A stretch of DNA of 64,000 nucleotides from Terriglobia bacterium (GTDB taxonomy: Bacteria; Acidobacteriota; Terriglobia; JAIQFV01), in the NCBI GenBank assembly GCA_020072965.1, contig JAIQFY010000006.1:1-64000 (forward strand), written 5' to 3'. The first letter of the stretch is position 1; each line of letters starts with the position of its first letter. Made by a program: the position numbers and the translations under genes. Under the pieces are notes generated by a model. That model saw only the letters and a program-made list of their open reading frames with translations, ran no database searches and was not told where the DNA came from. Below are positions 1 through 54,600 of this stretch, piece by piece.

Positions 1-463
1 CGTTGGGGTATTCGCGGATCTCCGCGGGCAGGACGAGTGCGGGGTTCGGTGAGCTTTCCATGATGCCGGTGATCCCGGCTGCCTGGTAGCCGTTGAAGAT
101 GATCATGTCTTCGGCGTAGGCGATCTGCCTGGCGGCGTCCTTCACCGGCTGCCAGTCGGAGTCCCGCGCGCCGCGCTCAACGTCGTCCACGTCCTGCCGG
201 CCAAGGGTGAAGGGCACGCGGAGCTCGACGACCTGCTGCGAGGTCCTCAGCCGGGCCATAAACCCTTCAACCCCTTCCGCGGGCGGGTCGACCTGCCCGA
301 CGTGGCCAGTTCCCACGCTGGAAAGCCCGAGGCCCGCGGGTTCCCCGACATCGACCACCCGGCGGCCCGCCACGTGCCGCCGGAACGTGCGGCGCGCCTC
401 CTCCTCGATGCTCGCCCAGGCGGCATCGGAGATCGGGGCGAGCTCGCGGTGCAGGTTGTTCAT
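1..463 (-). other. Encapsulin (Linocin_M18 family 1) shell-protein-like N-terminal half; its own ATG is at 463-461, in the same phase as the upstream Ig-repeat ORF with no intervening stop
   Basis: MNNLHRELAPISDAAW...RVPFTL...DVERGARDSDWQPVKDAA...FNGY matches the conserved N-terminal region of actinobacterial encapsulins (e.g. M. tuberculosis Cfp29 or Streptomyces Enc). This is recognised from family knowledge, not from a search. Confidence 0.65.
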
Positions 464-3400
464 GGCTGAGCATCCCGGGGAGCCGACGGTGAAGGTCGTC
501 GTGTTGGCGCTGGTGATCGCCGGCGCGGTCGCCGACGGGTTGACGGTCAGGGTGAAGTTCTGAGTGGCGTCAGGCCGCGGCGCCCCGTTCGATGCCGTGA
601 TGGTGAACGGGTAGCTGCCCGCGGCGCCCGGTGTGCCGGCCAAGGTGGCGGTGCTATTGCCGTTGTCCGTGAAGGTCACCCCGCCAGGCAGCGCACCAAC
701 CTCGGACAATGCCGGCGTGGGCGTCCCCGTGGCGGTCACTGTGAACGACCCCAGGGAGCCGACGGTGAAAGTGGTCGTGCTGGCGCTGGTGATCGCAGGC
801 GCGATGCCCGCGACGGTCAGGCTGAAGTTCTGGATGGCGTCAGGCCGCGGGGCCCCGTTCGATGCCGTGATGGTGAACGGGTAGCTGCCTATAGCACCCG
901 GTGTGCCGGCCAAGGTGGCGGTGCCGTTGCCGTTGTCGGTGAAGGTCACTCCGCTAGGGAGTGCACCCACCTCGGACAGGATCGGCGTGGGCGACCCCGT
1001 GGCAAGCACCGTAAACGACCCCGGGGAGAAGACGGTGAAGGTAGTCGTGCTGGGGCTGGTGATCGCAGGCGCCACCCCCGGCACGACGGTCAAGGTGAAG
1101 TTCTGGGTGGCGTCGGGCCGTGGTGGCCCGTTCGATGCCGTGATGGTGAACGGGTAGCTGCCCACGGCGCCCGGCGTGCCGGCCAAGGTGGCGGTGCCGT
1201 CGCCGTTGTCCGTGAAGGTCACCCCGGCAGGCAGTGCACCCGACTCGGACAGGGTCGGCATGGGCGACCCCGTGGCAAGCACCGTAAACGACCCCGCGGC
1301 GCCGATGAAAAACGAGGTCGTGCTGTTGCTCCAGATCACAGGAGCCGTCGCCGGCGGGGTACCGGGCCCGAAGAGGATTACGCTCAGCAATGATTCGCCG
1401 GCCACGTAGGCGAAGCCGGTGGCGGGGTTAACCGACACGCCGCCGAGGGAGGTCGCGTTGGGGACGGTCAGCAGCTGGGCATACTTCGCGAGGGCGGTGT
1501 CGACGACCTCCACGTTGCCCGTGTTCGTACCGGTCACCCACAGGACCCCGTGGTCAACCTGTCCTGGTTCACTTCCCGGGATAGCCGGGGCGAGGTCGGA
1601 GTCGAGGCCCAGGGAGTAAGCCTGTACTCCAGGGAGGTCGATGGTGCTGGTCGCCGACAACGTGATGACGGCGGGATCCTCGGCGTCACGGTTGCCGCTG
1701 ACCTTGATCAATGCACCGATCGGGATCGGCGAGCCAAGCGGGCCACCAATGGGGATGACCGTCGGGTCGGCGCCCGTTGGATCGAGGATCTCACGGGCGG
1801 TCATGAAGACATTGGCATTGGGATTGGCCTCAACCACCAGATCCCCGAACTTGACCTTCAGGTCCGGGTTTGCGTCTAAGACGGCCGCGATGTCCGGCCG
1901 CGATGTCTTCAGTGCTGTGAGCACTTCCGCAGAGGTGGCATAGGTGCTGACCTCGTCGAGCTCGCCCTCCAACGCGGGAGGCGGAACTATGGTGCCCTCC
2001 GCCTCAAGCCCGGCGTACGCCGGAAGGATGCGGTACATCTGGCCGGTGTAGGGCTCGACTCCGAAGAACTCACGGTTCAGCAGATCGGCCTCTGTCGACG
2101 CATCGTGGATCTTGTCGATCTGATGCCAGGCCAAGCCCGACAGGCCTACGCCCGTGGGCAGCGGATCGAACGTGTACGGTCCGGCCACCTGCCCGCTGAT
2201 TACGATCGGCAGGTTTTGGCTGGGCCAGGTGAAGTTGAGGTTCGGCATGTGGAACTCGTAGCTCTCACCCGAGATCGGCGGCGTTCCCATGATCACGCAG
2301 CCGATGGTGTTCTCCACCGGACCGCCCAGGGCGGTGTTGTCGATGGTCCGTCCGGAAACCTGCTTGATGTCGACCCACGACGGCACCATCGAGCCGGGTG
2401 ACGAGGTGGGTGCGAGTGCGCATGGATCACCTGACGCTTTCTGTGTTCCCTCGATCGCCACTGCTGCCGGAGCCCCGACCTCCCACTCGAGCTCGCCGTA
2501 CTCGTACTCGGTGGCCGGGTCCGAGGTTACGGTCAGGGTGATCGTGGCGTCCCCCGTCCCTGGGGGCGTAGTGGCGTTGTCATCGACGTGGGCTTGGAAT
2601 GTCCAGGTGCCCTCGATTGGCGTTCCGTAGAGGATGCCGTCCCCCTGGCCTGTGATGGGGTCGACGTGCGCGGTCAGCCAGCTAGGCAGATTCGTGAAGG
2701 TCCACTGGAACGGGCCCTCGCCGCCCTCAGCGATGCATGCCCACGCCTGGGGCACGCCCGCGAGGATCGCGACTTCGGGGTGCTCGGGTCCGCACAGAAC
2801 CGTAACAGTGACAGGTGCGGGGACCTCACCCGGTGCGGGCAGCTCGCCCGGGGCCAGAGTGGCCACGGACACGAACGACGTGAGGTCATTGGGCACCTGG
2901 GGCGTCGTCGGCAGGGACGTGGACGGCATGTTGCCGACATAGACAGATCCCGTCGCGGGGTCGAACGCCGGCTGGCCCGCGTTGTGGCCGAGGAGTCCGC
3001 CCCCGATGGGCGGACCCGTCGGGAACAGATCCACCGGATAATCCGGTTGGCTCACGTCGACCAGGACCAACAGCGACGACTCCGTGTCGACGCTCGTGGC
3101 GGGCACGATCTTGTCGCGCAGATTCGGATCGCGGCCGTAAGGGGGATTCGATTCGCTCTCCCACTGGTATCCCGAGCGCTTCATCACCACGTAAACGTAG
3201 GTGGCCGGGGTCTCCGAGTTGCTGGCGAGCGCCTCCTCCGTCGGATACGACACCGCAATCCCAACCGGCTCCCAACCGCCAACCGTGGCACGCCATGCGA
3301 ACTTGTTATGGTCCGCTGTGACCGTGGGGTCCGTCGGCACTTCACCGTCGGGCTGCGTGATCGGAATGGCGTCGGGCCACGGAACGTAGCCGACGACTTG

Positions 3401-3697
3401 GTTCTCCACGACGTCGATCGGTGGCCCGCCTACCATCAGCGCGCCGGTCGTTTCGGTACGGAGCCCCACGATCGTGAGCCCGTTCTTGTCGACCGAGTAC
3501 CAGAACGGTCGGGCGGGCTTGAGCGGGTTGCTGGGGGTCAACCCGTTCGCGAAGGGGTCGACCGCCGTCAGATGCGGGCTGGATGGCGCGAGATTCACGC
3601 TTTCGTGCACCGCGTACTGCGGCGGTTGGGCCGCATGAACAAACGAGAAGCTGGCTGTAAGCAGTCCAAGAATGACAAGCAGAATCAGGCGCTTCAT
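1..3697 (-). CDS. Large secreted multidomain protein (5' complete, 3' end runs off window): Sec signal peptide, beta-rich N-terminal region, >=3.5 tandem Ig-like (He_PIG / 'putative Ig' type) repeats, then an in-frame family-1 encapsulin (Linocin_M18)-like sequence
   Basis: ATG at 3697-3695 is preceded by AAGGAGA (3702-3708). The N-terminus MKRLILLVILGLLTASFSFVHAAQ is a typical signal peptide. The ORF track reports no stop-terminated minus-strand ORF in this phase, so the frame is open from 3697 to position 1. The repeat units read ...ALPxGVTFTDNGxGTATLAGTPGAxGSYPFTITASNGxPRPDAxQNFxLTV. The final ~155 codons read MNNLHRELAPISDAAWASIEEEARRTFRRHVAGRRVVDV...VELRVPFTL...DVERGARDSDWQPVKDAARQIAYAEDMIIFNGY. 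This translation was done by eye and is not verified codon by codon. Confidence 0.6.
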   Translation of the reverse strand, partial: MKRLILLVILGLLTASFSFVHAAQPPQYAVHESVNLAPSSPHLTAVDPFANGLTPSNPLKPARPFWYSVDKNGLTIVGLRTETTGALMVGGPPIDVVENQVVGYVPWPDAIPITQPDGEVPTDPTVTADHNKFAWRATVGGWEPVGIAVSYPTEEALASNSETPATYVYVVMKRSGYQWESESNPPYGRDPNLRDKIVPATSVDTESSLLVLVDVSQPDYPVDLFPTGPPIGGGLLGHNAGQPAFDPATGSVYVGNMPSTSLPTTPQVPNDLTSFVSVATLAPGELPAPGEVPAPVTVTVLCGPEHPEVAILAGVPQAWACIAEGGEGPFQWTFTNLPSWLTAHVDPITGQGDGILYGTPIEGTWTFQAHVDDNATTPPGTGDATITLTVTSDPATEYEYGELEWEVGAPAAVAIEGTQKASGDPCALAPTSSPGSMVPSWVDIKQVSGRTIDNTALGGPVENTIGCVIMGTPPISGESYEFHMPNLNFTWPSQNLPIVISGQVAGPYTFDPLPTGVGLSGLAWHQIDKIHDASTEADLLNREFFGVEPYTGQMYRILPAYAGLEAEGTIVPPPALEGELDEVSTYATSAEVLTALKTSRPDIAAVLDANPDLKVKFGDLVVEANPNANVFMTAREILDPTGADPTVIPIGGPLGSPIPIGALIKVSGNRDAEDPAVITLSATSTIDLPGVQAYSLGLDSDLAPAIPGSEPGQVDHGVLWVTGTNTGNVEVVDTALAKYAQLLTVPNATSLGGVSVNPATGFAYVAGESLLSVILFGPGTPPATAPVIWSNSTTSFFIGAAGSFTVLATGSPMPTLSESGALPAGVTFTDNGDGTATLAGTPGAVGSYPFTITASNGPPRPDATQNFTLTVVPGVAPAITSPSTTTFTVFSPGSFTVLATGSPTPILSEVGALPSGVTFTDNGNGTATLAGTPGAIGSYPFTITASNGAPRPDAIQNFSLTVAGIAPAITSASTTTFTVGSLGSFTVTATGTPTPALSEVGALPGGVTFTDNGNSTATLAGTPGAAGSYPFTITASNGAPRPDATQNFTLTVNPSATAPAITSANTTTFTVGSPGCSAMNNLHRELAPISDAAWASIEEEARRTFRRHVAGRRVVDVGEPAGLGLSSVGTGHVGQVDPPAEGVEGFMARLRTSQQVVELRVPFTLGRQDVDDVERGARDSDWQPVKDAARQIAYAEDMIIFNGYQAAGITGIMESSPNPALVLPAEIREYPN
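475..1410 (-). repeat. Tandem in-frame coding repeats (~270-273 nt, ~90 aa) encoding Ig-like He_PIG-type domains; 3 full copies plus a truncated fourth that stops abruptly at ...TTTFTVGSPG before the encapsulin-like ATG
   Basis: The period is visible as three near-identical antisense ORFs on the plus strand (633..884, 903..1157, 1176..1409). The GxYxFTITASN motif is characteristic of bacterial 'putative Ig' domains. Confidence 0.7.
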
Positions 3698-3995
3698 GGC
3701 GTGTCTCCTTAGCTTGCGCGACTCAGTTAGGGGAGACGTGGTATCGCGCAGAACCAGAACTAATTCTCCCCACCAATGCGGACGTGCCTATTCCGTTTAA
3801 TTTGTCCACTCAGTCCAGGGTAAGTTGTCCACCCGCGGACCGTAGCGAGGAATCGTTTCAGGATTCTCGTATCGCTTGATTTAATGATTAAATAGCCGGG
3901 TAGGGGCAGCATCATTTTCTCTCCAGAATAGGCAGACAACCCGACCTGTTACGCAGTGTAGGCGGGATCTGGTCGCAGAACAATCGGGCGGATTC

Positions 3996-4128: not shown

Positions 4129-4794
4129 CTACGGTTGAATCAGCCCGTGGCGGATGGCATAGCGGACTAAACCGGCAGTGTCGTGGATGTCGAGTCTCTC
4201 CATTATCTTCGATCGGTGCGACTCGGCGGTTTTGATACTGATCCCCAGGATCGTCGCAATCTCCTTCGAGGTTTTCCCTTCGGCTACGAGTTGCAAGACC
4301 TGGCGTTCGCGATCCCGTAGCGGCATCACCTGTTCAGGGCAGTTGGTCAGGTACGCCTCCACTACGACATTAGAAACATCCGGACTTAGATACGTGTCCC
4401 CTTTGCACACTGCTTGAATGGCTCGCAGCAGCTCATCAAAGGCTTTGGACTTGACGACCACGCCACGGACGCCAGTGCGAAGACCTTCGAGCACATTGCG
4501 GCCCTGAATGTACATCGTCAAAAGAATAGTCTTGGTCCGCGGACTCACTTTCGTGATCCCCCGGGCAGCGTCGATGCCGTTGAGAAGCGGCATGGCCACA
4601 TCAAGAACCGCTACGTCGGGATGAAACTTTTCCGCCAGGCGGATCGCATCCTGTCCGTCGCCAGCTTCGCCGACCACTTGGAAGCCGGCGCGCTCCAGCA
4701 GGGCCCTAAGCCCCTGCCGGACCACTTCATGATCGTCGGCCAGTAAGATTTCGAGCGGCATAGACATACTCCCAAAGTCGGGCCGGGCACTCAT
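4129..4794 (-). CDS. LuxR/NarL/FixJ-family two-component response regulator (REC + LuxR-type HTH)
   Basis: It has an N-terminal receiver (ILLADDHEVVRQGLRALLE, D in VAVLDVAMP) and a C-terminal LTxRExEVLxLVAxGxTSKEIAxxLxISxKTVExHR HTH. The likely true start is the internal MSMPLEIL (~4767/4761). Confidence 0.9.
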   Translation of the reverse strand: MSARPDFGSMSMPLEILLADDHEVVRQGLRALLERAGFQVVGEAGDGQDAIRLAEKFHPDVAVLDVAMPLLNGIDAARGITKVSPRTKTILLTMYIQGRNVLEGLRTGVRGVVVKSKAFDELLRAIQAVCKGDTYLSPDVSNVVVEAYLTNCPEQVMPLRDRERQVLQLVAEGKTSKEIATILGISIKTAESHRSKIMERLDIHDTAGLVRYAIRHGLIQP

Positions 4795-5216
4795 TCGCCA
4801 TTGCCAAAAAGTTTCAGGACAACGATGGGTAACTCGTCCTTCAGAGCTGCCTTTGCAATGAAGCCGCTGGCCCCGCGCCTATAGCACAGCTTGCGCAACT
4901 CCGGGGTGTTGTGGACTGTGACGATGACCACTCGGGCTTCGGGACAATCCCGGCCCAAACAGGATGTAGCCTCAATGCCATCCATGACCGGCATTTCCAG
5001 ATCGAGGAGCACCAGGTCCGGGCGCAAACTTCGCGCCAGTGCCAGGGCTTCACGTCCATTGCTTGCGGCACCAACGAAGCTCAGATTTTGCTGCCTCGCC
5101 ACTACAGAAGATATGGCACGCAAAGCCGCTGGCGAGTCGTCGACCACGATGGTCCGAATCCCCTTCTTTTGTCCTGCCATGCACGCCCCCTCATCCCGCA
5201 GGTGCACTTCATTCAC
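4791..5216 (-). CDS. Single-domain CheY-like response-regulator receiver protein
   Basis: IRTIVVDDSPAALRAISSVV...DLVLLDLEMPVMDGIEA...VVIVTVH is a REC domain only. The likely start is MAGQKKGIRTIVV (~5180). Its stop overlaps the downstream regulator start (ATGA), so the two sit in one operon. Confidence 0.8.
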   Translation of the reverse strand: MNEVHLRDEGACMAGQKKGIRTIVVDDSPAALRAISSVVARQQNLSFVGAASNGREALALARSLRPDLVLLDLEMPVMDGIEATSCLGRDCPEARVVIVTVHNTPELRKLCYRRGASGFIAKAALKDELPIVVLKLFGNGE

Positions 5217-5306
5217 AAGCTGCGAGGTGAGCCTACGCCTTCAGCCCGGGAGATGCAAGTAGGGAAGTCCTCGGTTTTTGCAAGGAAAAGTCCCGATTCA
5301 CTAAGC

Positions 5307-7229
5307 TCATGCGGCGCTCACGGACGAGCCAGCATCGGCCGCGGCGGCGTCGGATGAAACAGTTTTTCTCACAAATAGATCAGACGTGGTCAATGGCAAA
5401 ACAGCCTGGATGCGGGTCCCACTACTGCTGGACTGAATCTCCAGCCGGCCTCCCAGCAGCCTGATCCGTTCCCGCATTCCGGCAATGCCGACGCCGGCGA
5501 GACGAGAGTTGGGGGCCAATATCTCCGGAGGAATCCCGCGGCCGGTATCGGCGATTTGCAATAGGACAAACTCCGCCTGGCGTGTAAGTGTAATGGTGGC
5601 AGTGCGGCATTGGGCATGGCGATGGACGTTTGAAAGCGCCTCCTGAACGACACGATAAATCGCCAGTTCCACTTCATGTCCCAGCCGTCCCAGCTTCGGG
5701 TCGATATCGAGAGTGACCTGCATCCCGCTGCGACTGGCGAATCCCTCCACATAGTCCCGCAAAGTCGCCGAAAGGCCGAGTTCGTCGAAATAGGGCGGAT
5801 GCAGAAGGTAAGAGATGGTGCGCAATTCGCTCGTGGATTCCTCGATCAAGCGACCACACTCATTCACAAGCGCTTTCGTGCTGATATCCTCAGCGGGAAC
5901 GGTATCCCGGATCATGCCCACGTTCATAGCCAAGGCGACCAGGTTTTGTACGGCGCCGTCATGCAACTCGCGGGCCAGGCGGCGGCGTTCCTCGTCTTGT
6001 AGCTGAAATAGGCGGCCGGTAAGCTCCCCCAACGACGCCACGGCGCGTTGGTGCTCGGTGACTTCTTTCTGCAGGAGTGCGTTGGATGCAGCAAGCTCGG
6101 CCGTGCGTCTCTCTATGCGCATCTCCAACTCGGCATGCGCCCGCCGCAACTCCTCCTGCGCACCTTCCCGCGTACTGATCTCACGCTGCAAAGCCTCATT
6201 CACCAGTCGCATGCGCGCCGATGCAAGCGCAGCTCCGGTACCGAAATACAAGGTCAGAGCAAGCAGCAGACTCAAAACGCTTCCGACCGCCAGCGTTACT
6301 TCCGGGAGCCTGGACCTGATTTCATTCACAACATCAGCATTCGGCCAAACGCGAAGCTGCCAGGTTGTTCCCGGGAGCCGAACATCGACGACCGTACCCC
6401 ATTCATGTTCGTGTTTTCGATTTGTCCCTGGCAGCAGATACTCCTGCTGGTTTGACTGCAACACTGCGAACGAAAAATCAAGGGGCCTAACGTCATTTAG
6501 GATGTAGTCGAGGGATTGTTCGACATCGAAGAAGGTGACAATAAAGCCCCGAGACTGCCCTCGGGCGTATACAGGGTATGCAATGGCCCACTGTCGGCTT
6601 CCGTCTGAGACCGCTTCGGGCGTGCTGATCATCGCGGCCTTGGATTTGGTCACAGCCTCGATCAATGCCTTTGGCATTCCATCAAACGCAAGCGGTCTTG
6701 TACTCATCTCCCCGTCTGCCATTACAACTACGCGCCGCTCCCCACCTGGCGTAAGCCACTCAACGGCAACACAGCCGGTCCTGTGCTGAATGTAAAGTTC
6801 CGCGTTTCTTGTCCACAACTCCTGGGCCGGGTCGGCCGCTTCCCACAACATCGCCAACCGGTCAAGGCCCAGAACTTGCCATTCCATGTCGGTGATAAGA
6901 TCTGTTCGTATCGCCTCCGCGGCCAGCTTCGTCGCCCAATGCATTTCGGAATGCTCATGGGTTCTGATTGCTCGCCAGACCGCGATCGTCGCGGCAATGC
7001 CCACGGCAAAAACAAGAACGGCGATCCATCGCCGATCAGAACCGCCGTCCTGGTATCGCCCAGCCAACTCTTCCCGGTTTGAATCGTCTCTGAGCATGAA
7101 AACCTTTCGCGGAAACACCACAACAAGCAGCGCGCCGGGACCGAGCGCAATTTGTATTAAATGCCTCCGCCAAGGACGGGCGACGAATGCCAGATAATTC
7201 TGTACCCCCGCCATGCGAAACAGGAACAA
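5307..7229 (-). CDS. Sensor histidine kinase, HisKA_3/NarX-type dimerisation domain plus HATPase_c, with two TM segments bracketing a ~270-aa periplasmic sensor region and a coiled-coil linker
   Basis: TM helices RRWIAVLVFAVGIAATIAVW and LAVGSVLSLLLALTLYFG. H-box ERRRLARELHDGAVQNL. ATPase motifs VQEALSNVHRHA...DTGRGIP...GIAGMRERIRLLGGRLEI. The start is uncertain (MLRDDSN... is likely). Confidence 0.85.
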   Translation of the reverse strand: MFLFRMAGVQNYLAFVARPWRRHLIQIALGPGALLVVVFPRKVFMLRDDSNREELAGRYQDGGSDRRWIAVLVFAVGIAATIAVWRAIRTHEHSEMHWATKLAAEAIRTDLITDMEWQVLGLDRLAMLWEAADPAQELWTRNAELYIQHRTGCVAVEWLTPGGERRVVVMADGEMSTRPLAFDGMPKALIEAVTKSKAAMISTPEAVSDGSRQWAIAYPVYARGQSRGFIVTFFDVEQSLDYILNDVRPLDFSFAVLQSNQQEYLLPGTNRKHEHEWGTVVDVRLPGTTWQLRVWPNADVVNEIRSRLPEVTLAVGSVLSLLLALTLYFGTGAALASARMRLVNEALQREISTREGAQEELRRAHAELEMRIERRTAELAASNALLQKEVTEHQRAVASLGELTGRLFQLQDEERRRLARELHDGAVQNLVALAMNVGMIRDTVPAEDISTKALVNECGRLIEESTSELRTISYLLHPPYFDELGLSATLRDYVEGFASRSGMQVTLDIDPKLGRLGHEVELAIYRVVQEALSNVHRHAQCRTATITLTRQAEFVLLQIADTGRGIPPEILAPNSRLAGVGIAGMRERIRLLGGRLEIQSSSSGTRIQAVLPLTTSDLFVRKTVSSDAAAADAGSSVSAA

Positions 7230-15496: not shown

Positions 15497-16579
15497 GTGT
15501 TGTCGGCAAAGGTTTCGCAGAGAGTGGGCGATCAGCCATGTCAAATCTTCCTATGTCCCCCAGGCCAGCAATGCCCCATCGCAGTCCCCGGGTATTCCCC
15601 GGGAAAGGACGCCGCACGTCGGGTTAGGTCCGGCTTGGATATGGTCTCGGCCGATCTCGCCAACGCAGGCTCGAACCTGGGCGCGGCAGGGCATGTTGGC
15701 TTTCCATTTCCTGTTATTGTTGAGAAGAACTACAGCCAAACCACTTTTTATCCCACTCCTTACAGCTTTGACAGAATCACTATCTTTCAAGGTATGAATC
15801 CGAACAGCTGCGATTACCTCCCGCCATCGTACCTTAGCGATATGCACGGAACGGGGACAGGGGTGAACAGCTCAGGGCAGACGAGCAACGGCCCGACCTT
15901 GTTCGTTGGGGACGATCAGAATCCAATCCCTTTTCCAAGCTACCCGGACTGTAACGCTGCTTGTAACGCAAGTATGGAGGCCCAATTTCGATGCGCCGCC
16001 AACCGGCTCCCCAGCGGATCTTTTGTTGTGGTCATCAATATTGACCCTAACGATCCAAACTACCGCCAGATTGCACCCATGACTCTGACACAAAACGCGA
16101 GTGTTGATGCTGGCGGTCTTCGAGTCAATCTCAACCACGACCCTCAAGGAGATAGCAGTGGCGGGCTTTATCCCCTGCAACAGGTTCCACGGAACAGGTT
16201 GGGTACGGAATTTCCACGCGGATCCCTGATTGTAAAGTTGGCTCCGCCGATCACTTACTCGGTTGACGTCACTGATCAAGAGCATCCTGTGCTGATCCGC
16301 TCGACGCAGGCCGGCTCAGCCGCAAACCCAACGTCGATCCCCGTGGCAACGAACATCCTCGGTTTCTCGCAGCGGGCCCAACTGCCGACTGGGATCTTCG
16401 ATAATCCGGCGGATTACCTCCCCCAACCGAATGATTTTTCGCTGATTCAGGCCTTGGAGGTGATGGTCGCCGGGAGGACCGAGAGCGGACGCATCGATGA
16501 ATATAAGAGCGCTATCGATCCGACCAGGACGTTTCGGTTGAACACCTTGTCCACAACGACTGCCCTGCGAAACAAATAA
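15497..16579 (+). pseudogene. pilW: PilW-like minor pilin paralog lacking the N-terminal class III signal peptide and hydrophobic helix; probably decayed or non-functional
   Basis: From RVRSGLDMVSADLANAGSNL onward it aligns with paralog 21039..22175. The ~45 aa that carry GFTLLEMLVGIALMVVLGG in the paralog are replaced here by a non-hydrophobic sequence (QIFLCPPGQQCPIAVPGYSPGKD). No frame of 15468-15620 encodes a prepilin helix. Confidence 0.5.
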
Positions 16580-16586
16580 TAGTGAT

Positions 16587-18665
16587 TTGAGGTGTCCCAT
16601 GAAGCCCCCTATATTTTCCCCAGGACCCTATAAGATCGCCCGCCGTGTTCCCTCCAGGCCGGAAGGGGAAAGAGGGATGGCTTTGATCACAGCCCTCATC
16701 TTCCTGGGCGTGGCCATGCTGCTTGGGCTCTCCATCTTGCTCACCACCTCCAGCGACGTGTTCCTCAGTAGTTCGATGCGGAATACCAAGACCGCCTTTT
16801 ACGCCGCCGACGCGGGAGTCAGTGTCATGCGCAAGACCTTAGTGGACGCCTTGAAAGCGCAAACTCCAGCCAGCGGTACGAGCGCAAATACTGTTTTTGA
16901 TTGCTCCGATGATCCTACTTCTGCATTTAACAAATTGATTCTGAACGCGGCGCTGGCGAACGCCGGCAACGGATCGCAACAGACGGTAAGCTCCTACTCC
17001 AGTTATGGGGATTCGGCAGCCGCATTTACGATCGATACACGCAGCGATGGAGCTCAACCCCGCACCTTTTTCAAATGCATCAACCGCGGCAAGGTGACCC
17101 CTGTCCCCATACCACCCGATGCTTCGCACAACGAGACTTACAATTTTGCTTATCAAATTACCTCGAATGGGACGTCGGGGGGCCTTGCCTCCAGCACGGT
17201 CATTGAGCAGGGGACCATTTCGTACAACTTCAATGTCAATGTCAGTCAGCCGCTCTACTTTTTATCAGGGTTTGGAATGTTGCTAAACAATTTTGATCCC
17301 CACAATCCGCCCGGACCGCTTCCTTCCGGCAGGTACACTGGACCTGCTCACACCAATGGAGAATGGGGATTCACGAATGACCCCCCCGGCTACTATGAAT
17401 TCACTGACCAGATCAGCAGTGTCAGCCCGAATGCATATTACGTTTTCGCCGGACCGCCTCCCTTTTCGGAGGACGTCCCGAAGAGTACCGATACCCATAC
17501 GACCGGAAGAATTGCGCCCATATACGATGCCGGGTCAGGGGTCAATTTCGGAGCGGCGAGCGTGCAATTTCCGACGGATTCAAGTAACCAGCTCCACGCC
17601 GTGATTGATGGCTCCGGCTACAATGCCAGCAGTCCTTTCGCACCACAGGCAGGCCTCTCGGACCCTGATTTCCAAACCGCGATGCACAACACACTGGTGG
17701 CCGCCAACAGTTCGCCCTATAACGGCGCCAACGGGGTATACATCCCCGTATCCGTGTCGCGGGATCGGAATGGGAACCCCCTGTCCTGGCAGACCAGGGG
17801 CGGCGGGATTTTCGTCAATGGAAACGTCGATAACCTGACACTGGATGCGCGAACACCGGGATTACAGATCTATATCATCGTCCAGGGCGGACTCACCACG
17901 ACCCTCACTTATAACCTGAACGCGCGGACAACAACGATTCAAAGTGGGGCCTCTTCATTCACGGCTCCGGGATTGCCGACAAATAATCTTCCTTTCCGCA
18001 GTCCGGGTCAGCGTACCTCCCCTGCGACCTCGATTTCGTTCTATGTCAATGGGTCGATCAGCAGCATGCACGGACCGGTTGATGCTTCGGGACAGCAACT
18101 GAATGATGCGGTTACGAAACTACCGATGCCTGGCGTGCAAGATGGCGCCGCCGTGACCATCACCGCGACAGGGGATGTGGAGGTCACGGGGAGTGTGCTT
18201 TACCGTAGTGCTCCTGTGACGACGGCACCAGCAAACACCGCCGGAACCCTCATCCCGGCCAACGACTACGGCCAGGCGCTTGGAATTTACTCCCAAACCG
18301 GGAACATCTATCTTAATGTCGACCATATCCCCTCCCATAATATTGAAGTCGATGCGGCGCTGGCAGCTGTGCACGGAACAGTGACCTGGTCTGGTACGAC
18401 TCGACCCCCAAACGTGACGATCATCGGAGGACGCGTCCAGAACCAACCCGGGTCTATGGGGATCCAGAATACCGTGTTGTTCGATCGGCGCTTTGGGGCC
18501 GGTTTGTATGCTCCGCCGTTCTTTCCGTATATCAATGCATCGAATTTTGCTTTGGCGGGCGCCACCTATGCATTTGCGGTGGTGTGTACCCCCGCGCCCT
18601 GTTTGCCCAAGGCCGTCCCCACGAGCTATTCCGTCCCCTCGCGAATGGTGGCCCCGGCACAATAG
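16587..18665 (+). CDS. pilX: Large PilX-like minor pilin (PilX_N-type N-terminus plus ~600-aa C-terminal region), putative pilus-tip/adhesin component
   Basis: N-terminus ...ERGMALITALIFLGVAMLLGLSILLTTSSDVFLSSSMRNTKTAFYAADAGV matches the PilX N-terminal domain pattern (G-aLi.aLi.L.v..LLg...........s.....AF.AAeAG). It is 692 aa, against ~200 aa for canonical PilX. It is a paralog of 22193..24307. Confidence 0.65.
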   Translation: MRCPMKPPIFSPGPYKIARRVPSRPEGERGMALITALIFLGVAMLLGLSILLTTSSDVFLSSSMRNTKTAFYAADAGVSVMRKTLVDALKAQTPASGTSANTVFDCSDDPTSAFNKLILNAALANAGNGSQQTVSSYSSYGDSAAAFTIDTRSDGAQPRTFFKCINRGKVTPVPIPPDASHNETYNFAYQITSNGTSGGLASSTVIEQGTISYNFNVNVSQPLYFLSGFGMLLNNFDPHNPPGPLPSGRYTGPAHTNGEWGFTNDPPGYYEFTDQISSVSPNAYYVFAGPPPFSEDVPKSTDTHTTGRIAPIYDAGSGVNFGAASVQFPTDSSNQLHAVIDGSGYNASSPFAPQAGLSDPDFQTAMHNTLVAANSSPYNGANGVYIPVSVSRDRNGNPLSWQTRGGGIFVNGNVDNLTLDARTPGLQIYIIVQGGLTTTLTYNLNARTTTIQSGASSFTAPGLPTNNLPFRSPGQRTSPATSISFYVNGSISSMHGPVDASGQQLNDAVTKLPMPGVQDGAAVTITATGDVEVTGSVLYRSAPVTTAPANTAGTLIPANDYGQALGIYSQTGNIYLNVDHIPSHNIEVDAALAAVHGTVTWSGTTRPPNVTIIGGRVQNQPGSMGIQNTVLFDRRFGAGLYAPPFFPYINASNFALAGATYAFAVVCTPAPCLPKAVPTSYSVPSRMVAPAQ

Positions 18666-21038: not shown

Positions 21039-22175
21039 ATGATGCTGAATGATTTGATCTCTTCAAAAGTTGACTGGCACCAGCGGAATTCCATGCCATG
21101 CCTCAGGCGAGGGCGCCGCTCATCCGGCTTCACCCTTCTGGAAATGTTAGTCGGGATTGCCCTCATGGTGGTTCTGGGCGGGATGGTGTTTGGGCTGTTT
21201 AACAAGCATGCCACGGTCTACAAGCTTCAACAAGAGGTCACTGAACTGAATCTAGGCCTGCGCTCCGGACTGGAACTGATCTCGGCCGATTTGTTGAATG
21301 CAGGCGCCAACCTCTCCGCCGGAGGTTCCCAAAGATTTCCGTTTCCCGTCATGGTCGGTAAGAATGCGAATGGGAACTTTGATTCGATAACTGTTTACCA
21401 AGGGTACAAACAGGACAATGCACTTAACTACGTTTCTCCTACCACCCTGACCAAATTGACCGGGATTGATCCGGGGGTGCCTATTCCGATCAACAACACA
21501 GCGACCTTGTATCTCAATCCTGCACCCGGATTAACCGCAGCTCAGACCGCTGCGTTGCTCCCCGCCGGTGCCTACATCGTCATCGTGAACACGGACACCA
21601 GCGATCCAAACTATGGCCAGATCGCTCCGCTCACCCTGGCAGGTGGGTCGATCGCCTCCAATTGTGGGGCCAGCCCCTGCGTCCAGATCAGCACCACTGG
21701 AGGTCTGGATAACGGATCTGGATTGGTTGGTACCGGGCAGGGCGATGGGGTCGCCCCGGCCAAGCTCGGGACTTCCTTTCCTTTCGGGGCGATGGTCGTG
21801 AAACTGGCTCCCAGGGTGACTTACTTGGTGGATACTGCGATCGATCCGGTCCGACCCGCGTTGGTCCGGACGACAACGACTGCGGCCGGGGAGTCACGCC
21901 TCCAGTTGGTCTCAAACCTCCTCAGTTTCTCGCAACGCGCTCGGATGGCGACGGGGACATTTAATAATCCGGACGACTACACAGGAATTGATCCCCTGGG
22001 AAACCTGGTTGCCATGCGTAGGGATTTTTCACTGATACAATCCGTGGAAGTGACCATTGCGGGAAGAACCGCGACTGATCGTATCGATCGGTACCAAAGT
22101 GCCATTGATCCAACCAAGACCTTTCGACTGAATACTTTAACCACCGTGGTTGCGCTCCGTAATAAGGTTAACTGA
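21039..22175 (+). CDS. pilW: Type IV pilus minor pilin PilW-like, copy 2 (intact class III signal peptide)
   Basis: ...RRGRRSSG|FTLLEMLVGIALMVVLGGMVFGLF; the C-terminal region is homologous to 15497..16579. Confidence 0.7.
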   Translation: MMLNDLISSKVDWHQRNSMPCLRRGRRSSGFTLLEMLVGIALMVVLGGMVFGLFNKHATVYKLQQEVTELNLGLRSGLELISADLLNAGANLSAGGSQRFPFPVMVGKNANGNFDSITVYQGYKQDNALNYVSPTTLTKLTGIDPGVPIPINNTATLYLNPAPGLTAAQTAALLPAGAYIVIVNTDTSDPNYGQIAPLTLAGGSIASNCGASPCVQISTTGGLDNGSGLVGTGQGDGVAPAKLGTSFPFGAMVVKLAPRVTYLVDTAIDPVRPALVRTTTTAAGESRLQLVSNLLSFSQRARMATGTFNNPDDYTGIDPLGNLVAMRRDFSLIQSVEVTIAGRTATDRIDRYQSAIDPTKTFRLNTLTTVVALRNKVN

Positions 22176-22192
22176 CGAATTGAGGTGCCATT

Positions 22193-24307
22193 ATGAAGCA
22201 GGACAAGATCTCCCGTGGATTTCGAAATCTCAAGCATCGCCTGCATTCCAAGGGCAGGGACAAAAACGGAGTGGCCCTGATTACGGCCCTCATCTTCCTG
22301 GGTGTGACCATGCTTCTGGGACTCTCCATCATGCTCACCACGTCCAGTGACGTTTTCATCAGTGGTACCATGCGGAATTCGAAAACCGCCTTTTACGCTG
22401 CGGACGCCGGAATCAGTGTGATGCGGACTGCCCTGGTGAACGAGATCAAGACCCGGACGCCGAGAAATCTGGTCAACGGCACGGACCCTGTTTTTCCATG
22501 CCCCGATGCGACCTTTGACACAGCCGTCCTAACCGCGGCGCTCGGAAACGCGGGAAACGGCAACGCACAAACAGTGAGCTCGTATTCCACCTACGGCGAT
22601 TCACCCGCCAGGTACACGATTGACACGACCAGCCCCGGAGGGCAGCCCCGTACCTCGTTCAGTTGCACTCTGAGGGAAGCTACGGCTGGACCTTTCCCGC
22701 GGTTTGAACGTTATACTTTTGCCTATCAAATTACCGCGAATGGGGGCGTCCCAGGCGCGGCCGCTGATCTGGCCCAAAGCACCGTCATCGAAAAGGGAAC
22801 TATTACCTACAACGCAGAAGTCATCCAAACTGACCATCCCACCGATTACTGGAACCTGCTTTTCTCCTTCGCGGGATATGGGATGTTTATAGACCATTAC
22901 GATCCCCACAACGGGTCAACCCTCCTGCATGGAACCATTACGGGCCGTGTTCATACCAACGGGGAATGGGGATTCTCAACAGGCAATCCGAATTATGTCT
23001 TTACAGATCAAGTGAGCAGCGTCAACCAGAACGCGTGTTACTACTTCAACAGCTGTGTGGACCGCAACGCGAATTCCGTAACCCAAAATGGGCAGACGGT
23101 TGCACCGGTGTTTATGTCGGGCTTTTCACGCGGTGTGCAGAGTGTTTCATTGCCAGAGAATTCCAACAGCCAGTCACGCGCCGTGATCGACGGTTCGGGC
23201 ATTGACATGGCCGCGCTCACAGATCCCAGCCGGGATCCGAATTCTTCCGTGCCTGCTCCGCCAGCGCCCACTGCGGCGGAGTTGAGCGCAAATCTGAGGA
23301 ATGCAAACGGAACCGCATTTGGTGGCGGTAATGGCGTGTACGCCCCCATCCAGATCCAAAGTGACGACGGACGCGGGCATATCACATACAGGACTACAGG
23401 CGCTGGGGTCTATGTGAACGGAAACGTCACGGACATGACCCTGGATGCGAGAACTCCGGGACTGCAGATCTACACGATTAATCAGGGCGGGACTGTCTCA
23501 ACGGTCACCTATAATCTAACCCCTGGCACCGCCATCAACGGTTACCCTCCACTATCGACTACGCTCCAAAGCGGAGGGAGATCCATCACCTCGTCGGGGT
23601 TGCCTACGAATGTCAATCCTGTCAATCCCAATCGGCCTGCCTCACAGCAGCCCGCAGCCTCTATCTCTTTGTATGTGAATGGGGCGATCAATAGCTTGCA
23701 TGGCCCGGGTCCAGGACTACCGGGAGTGCAGGATAGCGCCGCAATGACCATTACAGCGACGGGAAATATTACTATCACTGGGGACTTGGATTATCACACC
23801 AGGCCAGTGACGACGACGCAGGGTCAAGTGGCGCCCGGCGTCCCTCCCAATAGCCCCCCGGGAACCCTCATTCCAAGCAACGACAATGGCCAGGCTCTCG
23901 GAATCTACACTTCCACAGGAAACATCTACATCGACGTCAGTGGTATTCAGTCCCGGAACATCGAGATTGATGCTTCCATGGCCACACTGAGCAATGGAGG
24001 GAATGGAGGTATTACGGTGGGAGGCGGAGTCAATGCGAGCAACATAACGATCGTGGGAGGCCGCATCCAGAATAACATCATGGTGTTGGGCAATTCCAGT
24101 ACGGTTCGCAACGTCTTGTTTGATCGCCGGTACGCAAATAGTGCCTACGCCCCGCCGTTCTTCCCGAGTACCAATGCGGCGGCGATACGCGGCACCGACC
24201 ATACCTTTACCTATCCTGTGGCCGCGGATCCCAACTCTCTGAGGGCCGTGGCTACCAGTTACGTCGTGCCCTCGCGGTTGCTCACGGCGGCGAATGCCGG
24301 CCAATAA
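22193..24307 (+). CDS. pilX: Large PilX-like minor pilin, copy 2 (704 aa)
   Basis: ...KNGVALITALIFLGVTMLLGLSIMLTTSSDVFISGTMRNSKTAFYAADAGISVMR. It shares C-terminal motifs with copy 1 (HTNGEWGF, GNIY.NVD, YAPPFFP). Confidence 0.65.
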   Translation: MKQDKISRGFRNLKHRLHSKGRDKNGVALITALIFLGVTMLLGLSIMLTTSSDVFISGTMRNSKTAFYAADAGISVMRTALVNEIKTRTPRNLVNGTDPVFPCPDATFDTAVLTAALGNAGNGNAQTVSSYSTYGDSPARYTIDTTSPGGQPRTSFSCTLREATAGPFPRFERYTFAYQITANGGVPGAAADLAQSTVIEKGTITYNAEVIQTDHPTDYWNLLFSFAGYGMFIDHYDPHNGSTLLHGTITGRVHTNGEWGFSTGNPNYVFTDQVSSVNQNACYYFNSCVDRNANSVTQNGQTVAPVFMSGFSRGVQSVSLPENSNSQSRAVIDGSGIDMAALTDPSRDPNSSVPAPPAPTAAELSANLRNANGTAFGGGNGVYAPIQIQSDDGRGHITYRTTGAGVYVNGNVTDMTLDARTPGLQIYTINQGGTVSTVTYNLTPGTAINGYPPLSTTLQSGGRSITSSGLPTNVNPVNPNRPASQQPAASISLYVNGAINSLHGPGPGLPGVQDSAAMTITATGNITITGDLDYHTRPVTTTQGQVAPGVPPNSPPGTLIPSNDNGQALGIYTSTGNIYIDVSGIQSRNIEIDASMATLSNGGNGGITVGGGVNASNITIVGGRIQNNIMVLGNSSTVRNVLFDRRYANSAYAPPFFPSTNAAAIRGTDHTFTYPVAADPNSLRAVATSYVVPSRLLTAANAGQ

Positions 24308-24846: not shown

Positions 24847-27342
24847 ATGTTTTCCTGCTTGTGCACTGAAATCCGATCAAGCGCCCTCTTGTTCTTCTGC
24901 CTGTTCTTGACACTCGTCAATGTCGGCACTCGAGCCCAGGAGAAACAGCCGCCATCGAACCCGGGAGGTCCGGCCCAACCCGCTCGCGTCGTTCCATCCC
25001 CGCTCCCAGCCAAGCTTGGCGAGCCCGAGGGTTACTTGCTCCCGAATGGGTGGAAACTGACTCCCGCGGGGACCCAAGTGCCGCTGGGTGATCTCCCTTT
25101 GCGAATTGCAGTCAGCCCTGACGGAAAACTCGTAGTGGCCACGAACAATGGCTACGGTGAGCAAGGTTTGACTGTGGTGGATGTGGAGAAACAGGAGAAA
25201 GTGTTCACCATTCCAATGGCGCGCGCTTGGCTGGGACTTCAATTTTCCAGCGACGGAAAAAAGCTCTATGCCTCTGGGGGTGGAGACAACAAAGTTCTTA
25301 TTTATGGTGCTGACCGGGGGATCCAGCCTCAGGCTGAAGAGATCGTCATCGGTGACCGCAAGCAATCCCTGTTCGTCTCCGGCCTTTGCATGGACGCCAC
25401 GGGGAAACGACTCTATGCGGCGCTCAATCTCTCGAATGAACTTGCCGTCGTCGATTTGAAGACCAAGAGTGTCGCCAAAATCATCACGGTGGGCGATCAC
25501 CCGTATACCTGCGTGGTCTCACCCGATGGTAGTCGGGTGTATGTCAGCAACTGGGGCTCGCGGTCCGTGTCTGAAGTGGATACGGCCGCCCTGGATGAAG
25601 TTCGAACGATTACCGTGGGTGACCATCCCAACGACCTTGCCCTCCCTCCCACTGGGAAGCGCCTTTACGTAGCGAATGCCAATTCAAATTCAGTATCAGT
25701 GGTCGACTTGGTGGCTCACCGGGCCGCCGAGACCATTTCGGTGGCGCTCTATCCGAAATCTCCCATCGGATCCACCACCAATGCGCTCGCCCTGACACGT
25801 AACGGCCAAAGGTTATTCGTCGCCAATGCCGATAACAATTCGGTCGCGGTAATCGCCTTGGGCGGAGGAGGTCGTCCCCGGAGTGTTGTCGAAGGCTTTA
25901 TTCCCGTGGGGTGGTATCCCACGGGCCTGGCACTGAGTCCGGATGAAAAGACTCTCTATGTGACGGGCGGGAAGGGCCTGGGATCAAAAGCGAATCCGCA
26001 TGGCCCGAATCCGAATTTAAAGCGAACCAAGGAGACGGAGTACATTGGCCGCATGTTCTCGGGCGTATTGAGCATCATCCCCGTCCCATCGGCTGGGGTC
26101 TTGAAGAATTTCACCGCACAGGTGTATGCCAACTCACCATACAAACCGACCCCCAAGATCTCGCCGGGCGTGACCGCCATTCCTCGAAGACCGGGAGAGC
26201 GTTCCCCTATCCAGCATGTCATTTATATCATCAAAGAGAACCGCACCTATGATCAGGTTTTTGGTGACATCAAGGAAGGCAATGGGGATCCGGATCTGGT
26301 GCTGTTTGGAGAGGCTGTGACGCCGAACCTTCATGCGCTGGTGCGACAGTTCGTCCTGCTCGATAATTTCTATGCCGATTCTGAAGTCAGTGCCGATGGC
26401 CACAATTGGTCGACGGCGGCGTACGCAACAGATTATGTCGAGAAAACGTGGCCCACCAATTACTCATCGCGGGGCCGCGAGTACGATTATGAAGGGGGCG
26501 TGGAGGTCTCCCGGCCTACGCGGGGATTTCTGTGGGATTATGCGGCCCGGGCCGGCCTGAGTTATCGCAGCTACGGAGAGTTTATCGAGGCTTCCGAGTC
26601 GCCAGACCTTCCCTCCCGCGCGCGGGAGAGAAGTCTGGAAGGTCATTTTGACCCCATGTATCGCCCCTGGGATATTAATTATCCGGACCAGAAACGCGTT
26701 GATGAATGGCTCCGCGAATTTCGGGAATTCGAGGAGAAAGGCAATCTTCCCCGCCTTCAAATCCTGCGTCTTCCGAATGATCACACTGAGGGAACGGCGG
26801 CCGGAAAACCGACCCCGCGGGCCTTTGTGGCCGAGAACGACCTTGCTTTGGGCCGTCTCGTGGAAGCCGTCTCCCACAGCATGTACTGGAATAGCACTGC
26901 CATCTTCGTTCTCGAAGATGACGCGCAGAACGGCCCGGACCACGTGGACGCTCATCGCACGGAGGCCCTGGTGATCAGCCCCTACACCAAGCGTCACTTC
27001 ACTGACTCCACCCTGTATTCCACCTCCTCCATGCTCCGCACGATTGAACTGATCCTTGGCCTCCCTCCCATGAGCCAGTACGACGCCGCAGCCACACCCA
27101 TGTGGAACTCTTTCACGAATAGTGCTGCCCTCGAGCCCTTTGCCTCGCTTGCCGCCCAGGTGCCGCTCGACGAGAAGAACCCGGAATCCGCACCCGGCGC
27201 CAAGCGTAGTGCTGCTTTCAATTTTTCTAAAGAGGATTCTGCCCCGGACATTGAACTGAATGAGATCATCTGGAAATCCATCAAAGGGGCGGGTTCAGAA
27301 ATGCCCGCCCCCGTCCGCGCGGCCTGGGTGAGGGGGAAATAG
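24847..27342 (+). CDS. Secreted bifunctional-architecture protein: N-terminal YVTN-family beta-propeller repeats fused to a C-terminal phosphoesterase-family domain (non-haemolytic phospholipase C / acid phosphatase AcpA type)
   Basis: Signal peptide, repeated YVxNxxSNSVSVVD / YVANANSNSVSV beta-propeller blades, then VIYIIKENRTYDQVFGD...GHNWSTAAYATDYVE...LRLPNDHTEG, which is characteristic of the PF04185 phosphoesterase family. Confidence 0.8.
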   Translation: MFSCLCTEIRSSALLFFCLFLTLVNVGTRAQEKQPPSNPGGPAQPARVVPSPLPAKLGEPEGYLLPNGWKLTPAGTQVPLGDLPLRIAVSPDGKLVVATNNGYGEQGLTVVDVEKQEKVFTIPMARAWLGLQFSSDGKKLYASGGGDNKVLIYGADRGIQPQAEEIVIGDRKQSLFVSGLCMDATGKRLYAALNLSNELAVVDLKTKSVAKIITVGDHPYTCVVSPDGSRVYVSNWGSRSVSEVDTAALDEVRTITVGDHPNDLALPPTGKRLYVANANSNSVSVVDLVAHRAAETISVALYPKSPIGSTTNALALTRNGQRLFVANADNNSVAVIALGGGGRPRSVVEGFIPVGWYPTGLALSPDEKTLYVTGGKGLGSKANPHGPNPNLKRTKETEYIGRMFSGVLSIIPVPSAGVLKNFTAQVYANSPYKPTPKISPGVTAIPRRPGERSPIQHVIYIIKENRTYDQVFGDIKEGNGDPDLVLFGEAVTPNLHALVRQFVLLDNFYADSEVSADGHNWSTAAYATDYVEKTWPTNYSSRGREYDYEGGVEVSRPTRGFLWDYAARAGLSYRSYGEFIEASESPDLPSRARERSLEGHFDPMYRPWDINYPDQKRVDEWLREFREFEEKGNLPRLQILRLPNDHTEGTAAGKPTPRAFVAENDLALGRLVEAVSHSMYWNSTAIFVLEDDAQNGPDHVDAHRTEALVISPYTKRHFTDSTLYSTSSMLRTIELILGLPPMSQYDAAATPMWNSFTNSAALEPFASLAAQVPLDEKNPESAPGAKRSAAFNFSKEDSAPDIELNEIIWKSIKGAGSEMPAPVRAAWVRGK

Positions 27343-51673: not shown

Positions 51674-54600
51674 TTGAGATGGAAGATGGCCGAAACAGAA
51701 CAGAAAAAGACGGTATCCAGTGCTAAAGCGAAAGCCGTGGATTTCTGGCATCATCGCTCGAGGGCGACACGCCTGGAGCTTTTGCTGCTGGTGGTGGTGT
51801 TTCTGTTCTTTGAATTCATCGTCCCGACGATTCTCGGTAGCCAGTATTCCAAGCGTTTCTTCGAAAAACATCTCAGCGACGCGCTTCGGTATCCCGTGAC
51901 CTTCGATCGCATTAATACGAACCTCTTCGGCCGCCCGGCGTTGTGGGTGGGAGGTATGAACATTCAGGATCACGAGGGACATCCTTTCTTCAGGGGCGAC
52001 GAGGTGAAAATGGAGTTGAGCCCCTGGGCGCTCCTTCGCGGTCATATTGTGCTGAATCTCATCCGGCTGGTGGACGGCGACTTTCTGGCCGCCCGCCTCC
52101 CCGATGGGCGATGGAATATCGCCGACCTCGTGTCAGCGGGAAACGATCCCGATCGAGCCATCGATCTCGAAAAGACCGCCGTTGAGATGAGGAACATGGT
52201 CGCTACCATCCAGGACCAAGCCTTGCCCCTCCCCCTGGTACAACATATCCGCCTGCGAGATTTTTCCATCTCCACCCTGGACATTCGACGCAAGACGCGC
52301 TTGCAGATAGACGCCATCGATGACGACCATCCCGAATCCAGTCTCGAGGTCAAGGGCAATTTTGCTGTGTTCGTCCCGGACGACCTCAGCACACTCAGTG
52401 GAAATCTCGATCTGACCCTGAAACATTTCAACCTCCAGATTTTGAATTCCTATTTGGGGTCAACCAAGTCTCAGGTGAAGGGGTTCGAGGGCTTCTATGA
52501 TATTCAATTAAAGATGGAAGGGCAGGGATCTTCTCCCATCTCCATCATTCTGCGCTCAAAAGCCGACCAGTTGAGAGTGGCCATCGACGCAACCTCATCC
52601 GGAGCCTCCGGTTCCGCAGGGTCCACTCATCCCAGTCCAGAGGCCTTGAACCGCGGCAGAAAATGGATCGACTTCAAAACCGCTTCACTGGAGGGCCTGG
52701 TGGGCCTGTCCACCGATGAAATTCGGTTCACTAAACTCAATGGAGAGCTGGCGTCCACTCATTTCGAGATGGACGGCCGAGTTTACAACCTGCACACCAG
52801 GATGCCTCGTTTGGAGACCTCCGTTTCAACGAGTGAGTTCGAAATCGCTGATCCCCTTCGATCGCTGATTGATGCGGAACTGGATGAGTTCGGAAGACGG
52901 ATTTTCGCGGGACTGACCGGGACCGCTCGGGCACAACTGATTTGGACCGGAAGGCTCGATGACCCGACATTCGACTGGCGGGCTGAACTGAAGAAAAGTC
53001 AATATCGAAATGATCAGTATGAATTCCAACTGAAGGACATTGTTTCCGTGATGCGGTCCAACGGCAAGAAGACTCAGATCGACTCCCTGGGAGCCCAATT
53101 CTTCAACTCCCCTTTGCAAGTCTCCGGCTGGGTCGATGAGAAGGACCGGGTGAATATGAAGCTTTCTCTCCCGGCGGTCCCACTCGGTCAGATTTATCCA
53201 TTCATGAAACGGCTTCGGAGCCAGGGTTACTTGGCTTCCATGCCATGGTTGGATCGGGTCCCCAGCGTAAGTGGTCGAGGCCACGCGGAGTTACTCGTAA
53301 CCGGAGACCTGGATCACCCGGAGGCGGCTGGAACCCTGTCCATAGCCGGGACACGGATCCAGCTCGCAGGACTCTCTTTCCCGATCGAGAACGTGGAGGG
53401 TCGGGTAGTGCTGAAGGACAGGGTCGTTTGCGCGCATCAGTTTTATCACAGGGCCGTTTGCGCGGACCCGATTTCCGGATCTTTGGGGGATTCTCCCTTC
53501 GAGCTGGAGGCGGTACTGGATCCGAAGGAGTTCTCGCTGTTGGCCTTGCACTTCAGGTCTCCGTCTATGAATTTGCACCGATATGATGAACTAACGTCCT
53601 CGCGCTGGATCGATCGGGTGGATTTGCCAATAGTCGGGCAGATCAAGGGAGCCGACGGGGTCGCCGACATTCAGCTGGACTATCCTTCAGGCGGTGTGCG
53701 CCGTGCCGCTCCGATCTCCAGACCGGTCGCCCAAGTTTCGGGCCTGGATGGCGAAGCAGACGGCGAGGACGATCCGGTCCTTCTGAATGAATCCGGGAGA
53801 CTTCCGGAGTTTTCCCTGCAAATGCGTAATCTGCGAAATGGCGGCGCCGTGCTGTCCAACGTGGCGCTGCCACTCAAGGGCTTTTCCGGCGGGCTCATCT
53901 ACAGCGGCGATAGGCTGAGGTTTCGTCATTTGGAAGGGTCCTTGGGGGACTCTTCGTTGTCGCTGGATGGAGGGATCGAACAGCTGAATGAATTGGGGGA
54001 ACGATGGGATCTCAAAGCACAAATGAGCGCCGCGTTTCCGCAGATGTCCTTATTGCTCCCGGCGGCATGGAAAAACCAGATTACCGCGGAAGGGCAGTTC
54101 CCCGTCACCATTTCATTCCTAGGCGAAAGGAACGATCAGCTCGAGGTTCGCGCCGAGGTCAATTTTCCAGAATCAGCCCAACTGAGACTTGCCCGTTCGT
54201 TCGAAAAGCCCGTGGGCACCTCAAGCCACCTTTCTCTTGACGGCGTATGGAAAAACCAAGCCTTTGACATCAATGAAGGAAATCTCACGCTGGGCGAACT
54301 TCCCTTGGCGGTCCATGGCACGCTGGATTTTTCGGAGACTCTTGGGGTGGAGATGGCCCTGACCGCCGCGATGGACCAGTTCGCTCCCGTGACGACGCTC
54401 CTGAAGTTCGTCAAGCTCCCGGCAACCTCCCTGAGTGTTCGTGGCGGATCGGCTTCCGGCTCCGTAACGCTCTCGGGGAACCCGAGTGATCCCGAGGTGA
54501 GTTCGACCTTGAGACTTGCAGACGTATCGGTAGACGGGATGCCCTGGGGACCAACGAGTCTGACGGGAGATCTGACCGTCGGAACCGGGGGCGTTTCCGC

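Follow-up and report, generated by a model that had tools for sequence, protein, structure and literature searches.

Does a Terriglobia bacterium make an encapsulin whose shell protein carries a large secreted protein on its N-terminus, or is such a protein a product of assembly? The question arises at the left end of the 64,000-nucleotide stretch analysed here (the window: positions 1 to 64,000 of contig JAIQFY010000006.1, assembly GCA_020072965.1), where a minus-strand ATG at 3697-3695 opens a frame of 1232 codons with no stop until window position 2. A preliminary description of this DNA had reported an uninterrupted frame from a signal peptide through immunoglobulin-like (Ig) repeats into a family-1 encapsulin, and the deposited letters do encode one. 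It had offered as explanations a horizontally acquired operon fused by a deletion, a new encapsulin architecture, or an assembly or construct chimera. Our comparisons favour the assembly chimera, the join being absent from two contigs of sister assemblies (L010 and L011) and lying 471 nt from the contig end; the deletion-fused operon, the new architecture and the construct fared poorly. We put at about 0.88 the probability that bases 1-471 are a chimeric contig end and that the organism itself has no Ig-encapsulin fusion.

The junction in sister assemblies

The contigs used for comparison carry a member of the 90% cluster of the response regulator encoded at 4129-4794; ENA supplied two of them, assembled with MEGAHIT, and Logan four. 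L010 (ENA ERZ27248265, 132,756 bp) follows the window from 12000 down to 472, that is over 11,529 bp, at 100.000% identity with 0 mismatches and 0 gaps; L011 (ENA ERZ27248002) does so from 9435 down to 472, over 8,964 bp, again at 100.000% with 0 mismatches and 0 gaps. From 471 on, neither shows any relation to the window (ungapped identity 27%), and the relatives of the encapsulin show the converse pattern, resembling the window from 471 downwards and being unrelated to it above. These two divergences place the breakpoint of the join at 471..472, inside the interval 440-500 that had rightly been singled out for checking. L010 and L011 are assemblies of the same population; neither reproduces the junction, and both continue with the native gene.

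In the two ENA contigs the Ig repeat that the join interrupts, the fourth of its series, goes on past 472 as ...TTTFTVGSPG|SFTVTATGTPMPTLYEV... (GSPG|SFTVTATG), which bears out the earlier remark that the last repeat is cut mid-domain. At the DNA level the native sequence reads ...CCCCGGGAT|CGTTCACGG and the chimeric one ...CCCCGGGAT|GCTCAGCCATG. After the fourth repeat the intact gene encodes five repeats of ~95 aa (a 282-nt array) before its stop at codon 1619. The complete gene for this 1618-aa secreted repeat protein lies at 11065-15921 in L010 and at 5739-10595 in L011, and it is followed by host genes for a 443-aa propeller-like protein, DUF190, CrcB, adenosine deaminase and Rex. Measured against it, the window holds the first 1075 of 1618 codons (472..3697, minus strand), and the C-terminal 543 codons are absent from the window contig.

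The Logan contigs end before the junction. L001 and L012 (SRR15677228 and SRR15677233) match at 100.000% down to 1267, within the repeats, and L013 and L014 (SRR15677226 and SRR15677225) at 100.000% as far as 1516 and 2060, short of the repeats; two of the four (L001, L012) therefore also break inside the tandem repeats. Two other long contigs are listed that share the gene neighbours of L010 and L011 and would likewise continue with the native gene; the base-by-base comparison covers L010 and L011. Scans of GTDB species representatives found neither the chimeric nor the native junction.

The encapsulin fragment and its relatives

The segment beyond the breakpoint holds codons 1-154 of a family-1 encapsulin shell gene (2..463, minus strand), which runs off the contig end. 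Residues 1079-1232 of the open frame match Pfam Linocin_M18 (PF04454) at model positions 1-150 of 253 (E 3.6e-51; 174.3 bits, cutoff 24.3) and NCBIfam encap_f1 (NF041155) at 183.5 bits (cutoff 100), so that the start of an encapsulin had been recognised correctly. The solved shells of the actinobacterial two-gene DyP-encapsulin systems (Mycobacterium Cfp29; PDB 7boj, 9fn9, 7p1t) align with it residue 1 to residue 1, the methionine of MNNLH pairing with the first residue of Cfp29 (E 2.9e-55). What is present is the N-terminal part, about 57-60% of a shell gene (relatives have ~268 codons); a complete HK97-fold protomer (about 260-270 aa) is not present, as the fragment stops at the contig end. 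Its best other relatives, at 86% amino acid and 86-88% DNA identity, lie on high-GC (0.71-0.73) metagenome contigs, and the named ones are Streptosporangiaceae and Streptomyces, in line with the actinobacterial type proposed before. Among the 120 encapsulin relatives listed, the 118 non-partial ones are all 263-270 aa long and have no N-terminal extension.

A DyP peroxidase gene lies directly upstream of the shell gene in all six encapsulin loci inspected (L002-L007), overlapping its start by ATGA. The DyP proteins of these loci end in the cargo-loading tail ...GSLGIGSLKRSAQP*, which includes the targeting peptide GSLGIGSLK. A remnant of such a DyP cargo gene, recognised by comparison with L002-L007, stands in the window at 464..471 (minus strand; GCTCAGCC) and possibly reaches 477 (CGGGATGCTCAGCC); in the DyP frame, CGGGATGCTCAGCC translates as R-D-A-Q-P-stop. 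No DyP similarity was found in the window above this remnant. The join falls at points without functional meaning in either parent: it cuts the Ig gene mid-repeat and the DyP gene 8-14 nt before its stop, with loss of the targeting peptide. Beside the shell gene the window has no cargo gene that ends in such a peptide, just the final 8-14 nt of DyP. Judged by sequence comparison, the 471-nt segment is a DyP-encapsulin locus of actinobacterial type, truncated some 8-14 nt ahead of where its DyP gene ends. In contrast to the known two-gene systems, the window has those few nucleotides of DyP and 57% of the shell gene, and these adjoin unrelated DNA of an acidobacterium where the contig ends.

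The NCBI record agrees with this picture. MBZ5535268.1, 'MAG: bacteriocin family protein, partial [Acidobacteriia bacterium]' (MAG, metagenome-assembled genome), is identical to the encapsulin fragment, is 154 aa long and lies on a 139,580-bp contig; because it is partial with exactly 154 aa, the contig must end at window position 1. The response regulator at 4129-4794 carries the accession that comes next, MBZ5535269.1. NCBI thus gave the 3.2-kb Ig open reading frame (ORF) no protein, and presumably handled it as an incomplete gene or a pseudogene. An exact look-up of the query protein (P0001) did not find it recorded as a gene product. The two sides of the junction differ in taxonomic affinity, the flank belonging to an NCBI 'Acidobacteriia/Terriglobia' MAG and the named relatives of the fragment being Streptosporangiaceae and Streptomyces. 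MBZ5535268.1, which carries the Acidobacteriia/Terriglobia label, probably assigns an actinobacterial gene to the wrong phylum.

A full-length encapsulin 100% identical to the fragment is missing from the protein database. We considered this as a sign of a rare donor and rejected it, since the database is incomplete for these samples: the homologue search did not return the 1618-aa ENA protein either, although that protein is identical to the query over 1075 aa and its contigs are in the contig collection. That a protein is missing from this database thus counts for little where these samples are concerned.

Origin of the join

Chimeric contig ends in short-read metagenome assemblies typically consist of a short terminal stretch of other taxonomic affinity, located beside a repeat and not reproduced by other assemblers or samples. 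The window shares all of these traits. The foreign segment is short and terminal (471 nt at the end of the 139,580-bp contig), is about one sequencing fragment long and then dead-ends, and the 270-nt tandem array of the Ig gene ends where the junction lies. To our knowledge, encapsulin genes hold no repeats able to halt an assembler. We propose that, during the building of the Terriglobia/Acidobacteriia MAG, the assembler would have stalled in the 270-nt tandem repeat that lies within a large gene for a secreted protein, and that the contig tip would then have gained roughly one sequencing-fragment length of unrelated high-GC actinobacterial DNA, namely the final bases of a DyP peroxidase gene and 154 codons from the start of the encapsulin gene that goes with it. 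The contig comparisons establish the breakpoint, its absence from the sister assemblies, its contig-end position and the parentage of both sides. As to the exact mechanism, a chimeric read or an extension of the tip by the assembler, we infer that a chimeric read or fragment most likely made the join, because the two parents share at most ~6 nt there. The open frame across the join is a 1-in-3 chance event, as just three codons (C-S-A) span the distance from the breakpoint to the encapsulin ATG.

Several points weigh against a chimeric contig end. The microhomology of at most 6 nt, in which the window differs from other chimeric ends, is too short for a simple mis-join in a k-mer graph, so that a chimeric read or fragment must be assumed. 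The artefact is deduced from the comparison of assemblies and not from mapped reads. The GC content at third codon positions (GC3) is alike on both sides of the junction (0.87 and 0.88), and composition cannot separate them. The donor genome is missing: nothing above 88% DNA identity was found anywhere searched, and a scan of JGI metagenomes with a 42-nt pattern from the encapsulin 5′ end gave four contigs of only 78-80% identity, none of them the donor. Finally, a variant private to the MAG's own sample is conceivable, if improbable.

An alternative would be a real, non-functional scar of illegitimate recombination, carried by a minority sub-population and captured by the MAG contig, in which an actinobacterial DyP tail and encapsulin truncate the Ig-repeat gene. 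The short junction microhomology is what illegitimate recombination would leave, and the Ig gene has an actinobacterial-like composition and an actinobacterial homologue, so that the locus may have a history of inter-phylum exchange. We nevertheless regard a scar as unlikely: the gene is intact in L010 and L011, whose flanks are 100% identical, the contig stops 471 nt beyond the join, integration would have had no homology to anchor it, and NCBI annotated the two parts separately. A secreted encapsulin fusion with a function would be a sub-case of this scenario and is still less likely. Natural N-terminal fusions to family-1 encapsulins do exist, namely the archaeal Flp-encapsulin of Pyrococcus furiosus and the anammox dihaem cytochrome c cEnc (PMC11664910), so that N-terminal fusion in itself is not without precedent, the preliminary description having known of none for a secreted one of 1100 aa. 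The deposited frame, open across the join, resembles them in having an extra domain ahead of a family-1 HK97-fold protomer. The natural fusions, however, add small cytoplasmic cargo domains that are lumenal and conserved across genomes, whereas the window would add a 1075-aa signal-peptide protein cut mid-domain and found in one contig only. In family-1 shells the N-terminus points into the lumen, so that domains fused to it are enclosed (PMC11664910); sixty secreted domains of 115 kDa would not fit there. Moreover, the three linker codons come from an out-of-frame DyP tail, the arrangement is not seen in the sister assemblies, and the encapsulin half is incomplete in the data. Both parts occur together in none of the 120 best encapsulin matches or 59 Ig-protein matches, and PF04454 is found on none of the 59 Ig-protein homologues. 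On this evidence, a genuine new architecture in which a ~1075-aa secreted Ig/propeller protein is functionally fused to a shell protein is very improbable.

The motifs CCCGGG and GCTCAGC, which lie at 479-465 and hence both within 15 nt of the join, had also raised the idea of a laboratory construct or cloning scar. The idea is scarcely credible: CCCGGG is native to the intact Ig repeat of L010 and L011, GCTCAGCC is native to the DyP tail of L002 and L003, and neither site falls on the 471|472 breakpoint. CCCGGG is moreover common in these GC-rich sequences (0.6-1.6 per kb), GCTNAGC being rarer (0.08-0.54 per kb). A chimeric contig end accounts for the junction best, and the case carries a caution: an in-frame 'domain fusion' in the final few hundred bases of a MAG contig, beside a tandem repeat, should not be equated with biology.

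The repeat-protein gene

With the foreign segment set aside, what is real is modest: a 1618-aa secreted propeller/Ig-repeat protein with a GC3 of 0.82 in a 0.56-GC host. Its gene is preceded by a Shine-Dalgarno sequence AAGGAG at 3705..3710 (minus strand, read from the sequence). Residues 1-22 (3632..3697, minus strand) look like a Sec-type signal peptide, MKRLILLVILGLLTASFSFVHA|AQ, as predicted from the n/h/c-region pattern of the translation. The N-terminal region of ~770 aa (1328..3631, minus strand) is predicted by AlphaFold to fold confidently as an all-beta structure (mean predicted local distance difference test score 86.2; predicted template-modelling (TM) score 0.88). Every PDB match returned by Foldseek is a beta-propeller protein, with TM values of only 0.1-0.2; the likeness to beta-propellers is a generic one, with no specific function assignable. 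Residues ~800-1075 form three repeats of ~90 aa and the first 20-odd residues of a fourth. Tandem Repeats Finder (TRF) describes these Ig-like repeats as an array of 270-nt units, 86% identical and in exactly 3.0 copies, at 474..1305 (minus strand); in the intact gene it counts 3.8 copies. The signal peptide and the repeat architecture suggest that the protein likely has a secreted or cell-surface binding role.

The repeats had been assigned to the He_PIG type. He_PIG (PF05345) gave no match for the window protein at E<=0.01, nor for the complete 1618-aa form at E<=1; among the homologues, He_PIG matches are mostly weak precomputed ones, and P0131 carries one unmarked match. These homologues (P0121-P0177), to which the true gene is 70-79% identical, are large secreted beta-propeller and Ig-like (He_PIG/BACON-annotated) repeat proteins of soil Acidobacteria and Actinobacteria, mostly of 1274-1594 aa with shorter exceptions of 1119 and 604 aa. 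They have the N-terminal domain and the ~90-aa repeats in common with the true gene, and P0122 also has the C-terminal ~95-aa repeats; the repeats are intact in the four of four homologues whose sequences were read. The C-terminal modules differ among the homologues, and the window gene stands apart by a GC3 (0.82) unusually high for its host.

In agreement with the preliminary description, sliding windows set the left 3.7 kb apart by composition, with a GC of 0.63-0.71 over 1-3700 against 0.46-0.61 in windows beyond 3800. To call its GC3 near saturation was an overstatement, the measured values being 0.80-0.88 in the left ORF against about 0.57-0.74 in the other long ORFs of the window. Nor was the suspicion of a second join at 3650-3800 borne out: the composition boundary at 3697 is spanned by contigs from both ENA (two) and Logan (four), and is therefore genuine. 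In the intact locus of L010, high GC is restricted to the single 1618-aa ORF (GC 0.655, GC3 0.82); the upstream spacer has a GC of 0.555, the upstream response regulator gene 0.577 (GC3 0.67) and the downstream gene 0.55 (GC3 0.63). The repeat-protein gene (window 472-3697; L010 11065-15921) is in this respect a single-ORF GC island, with GC3 0.82 against 0.57-0.71 in its flanking neighbours. A weaker excess is found for homologues in three other contigs of ~0.56 GC (L008, L009, L015), where GC3 is 0.68-0.72 against 0.44-0.67, mostly ~0.6, in the neighbours; the homologue in a Mycobacteriales MAG (L016) has a GC3 of 0.865, in keeping with its 0.675-GC genome. As a matter of composition, not of phylogeny, the gene may be of actinobacterial origin and may have been transferred, perhaps long ago and repeatedly, into Acidobacteria.

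Upstream of the repeat-protein gene, and co-oriented with it (4129..7229, minus strand), stand genes for a HisKA_3 histidine kinase (5307-7229), a receiver-only response regulator (4791-5216) and a GerE/LuxR response regulator (4129-4794). A GerE-type regulator and a 546-aa gene also lie near the Mycobacteriales homologue (L016 1953-4252) and are absent at the other three homologous loci; the regulator genes beside the repeat-protein gene may be a coincidence.

Other features of the window

No tRNA gene and no Rfam match at gathering score was found in the entire 64 kb (1-64000). Two gene pairs of comparable size follow one another at 15497-18665 (360+692 aa) and 21039-24307 (378+704 aa). Pfam gives no match for the first, whereas a prepilin N-methylation motif (N_methyl) and PilX_N are present in the second; the pairs may represent duplicated pilin-like/PilX-like modules. 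An 831-aa protein encoded at 24847-27342 combines a lactonase/YncE-type beta-propeller with a Phosphoesterase (PF04185) domain. Further along, at 51674-55621, a 1315-aa AsmA/YhdP/DUF748-like protein is encoded, by name a member of an outer-membrane lipid-transport family.

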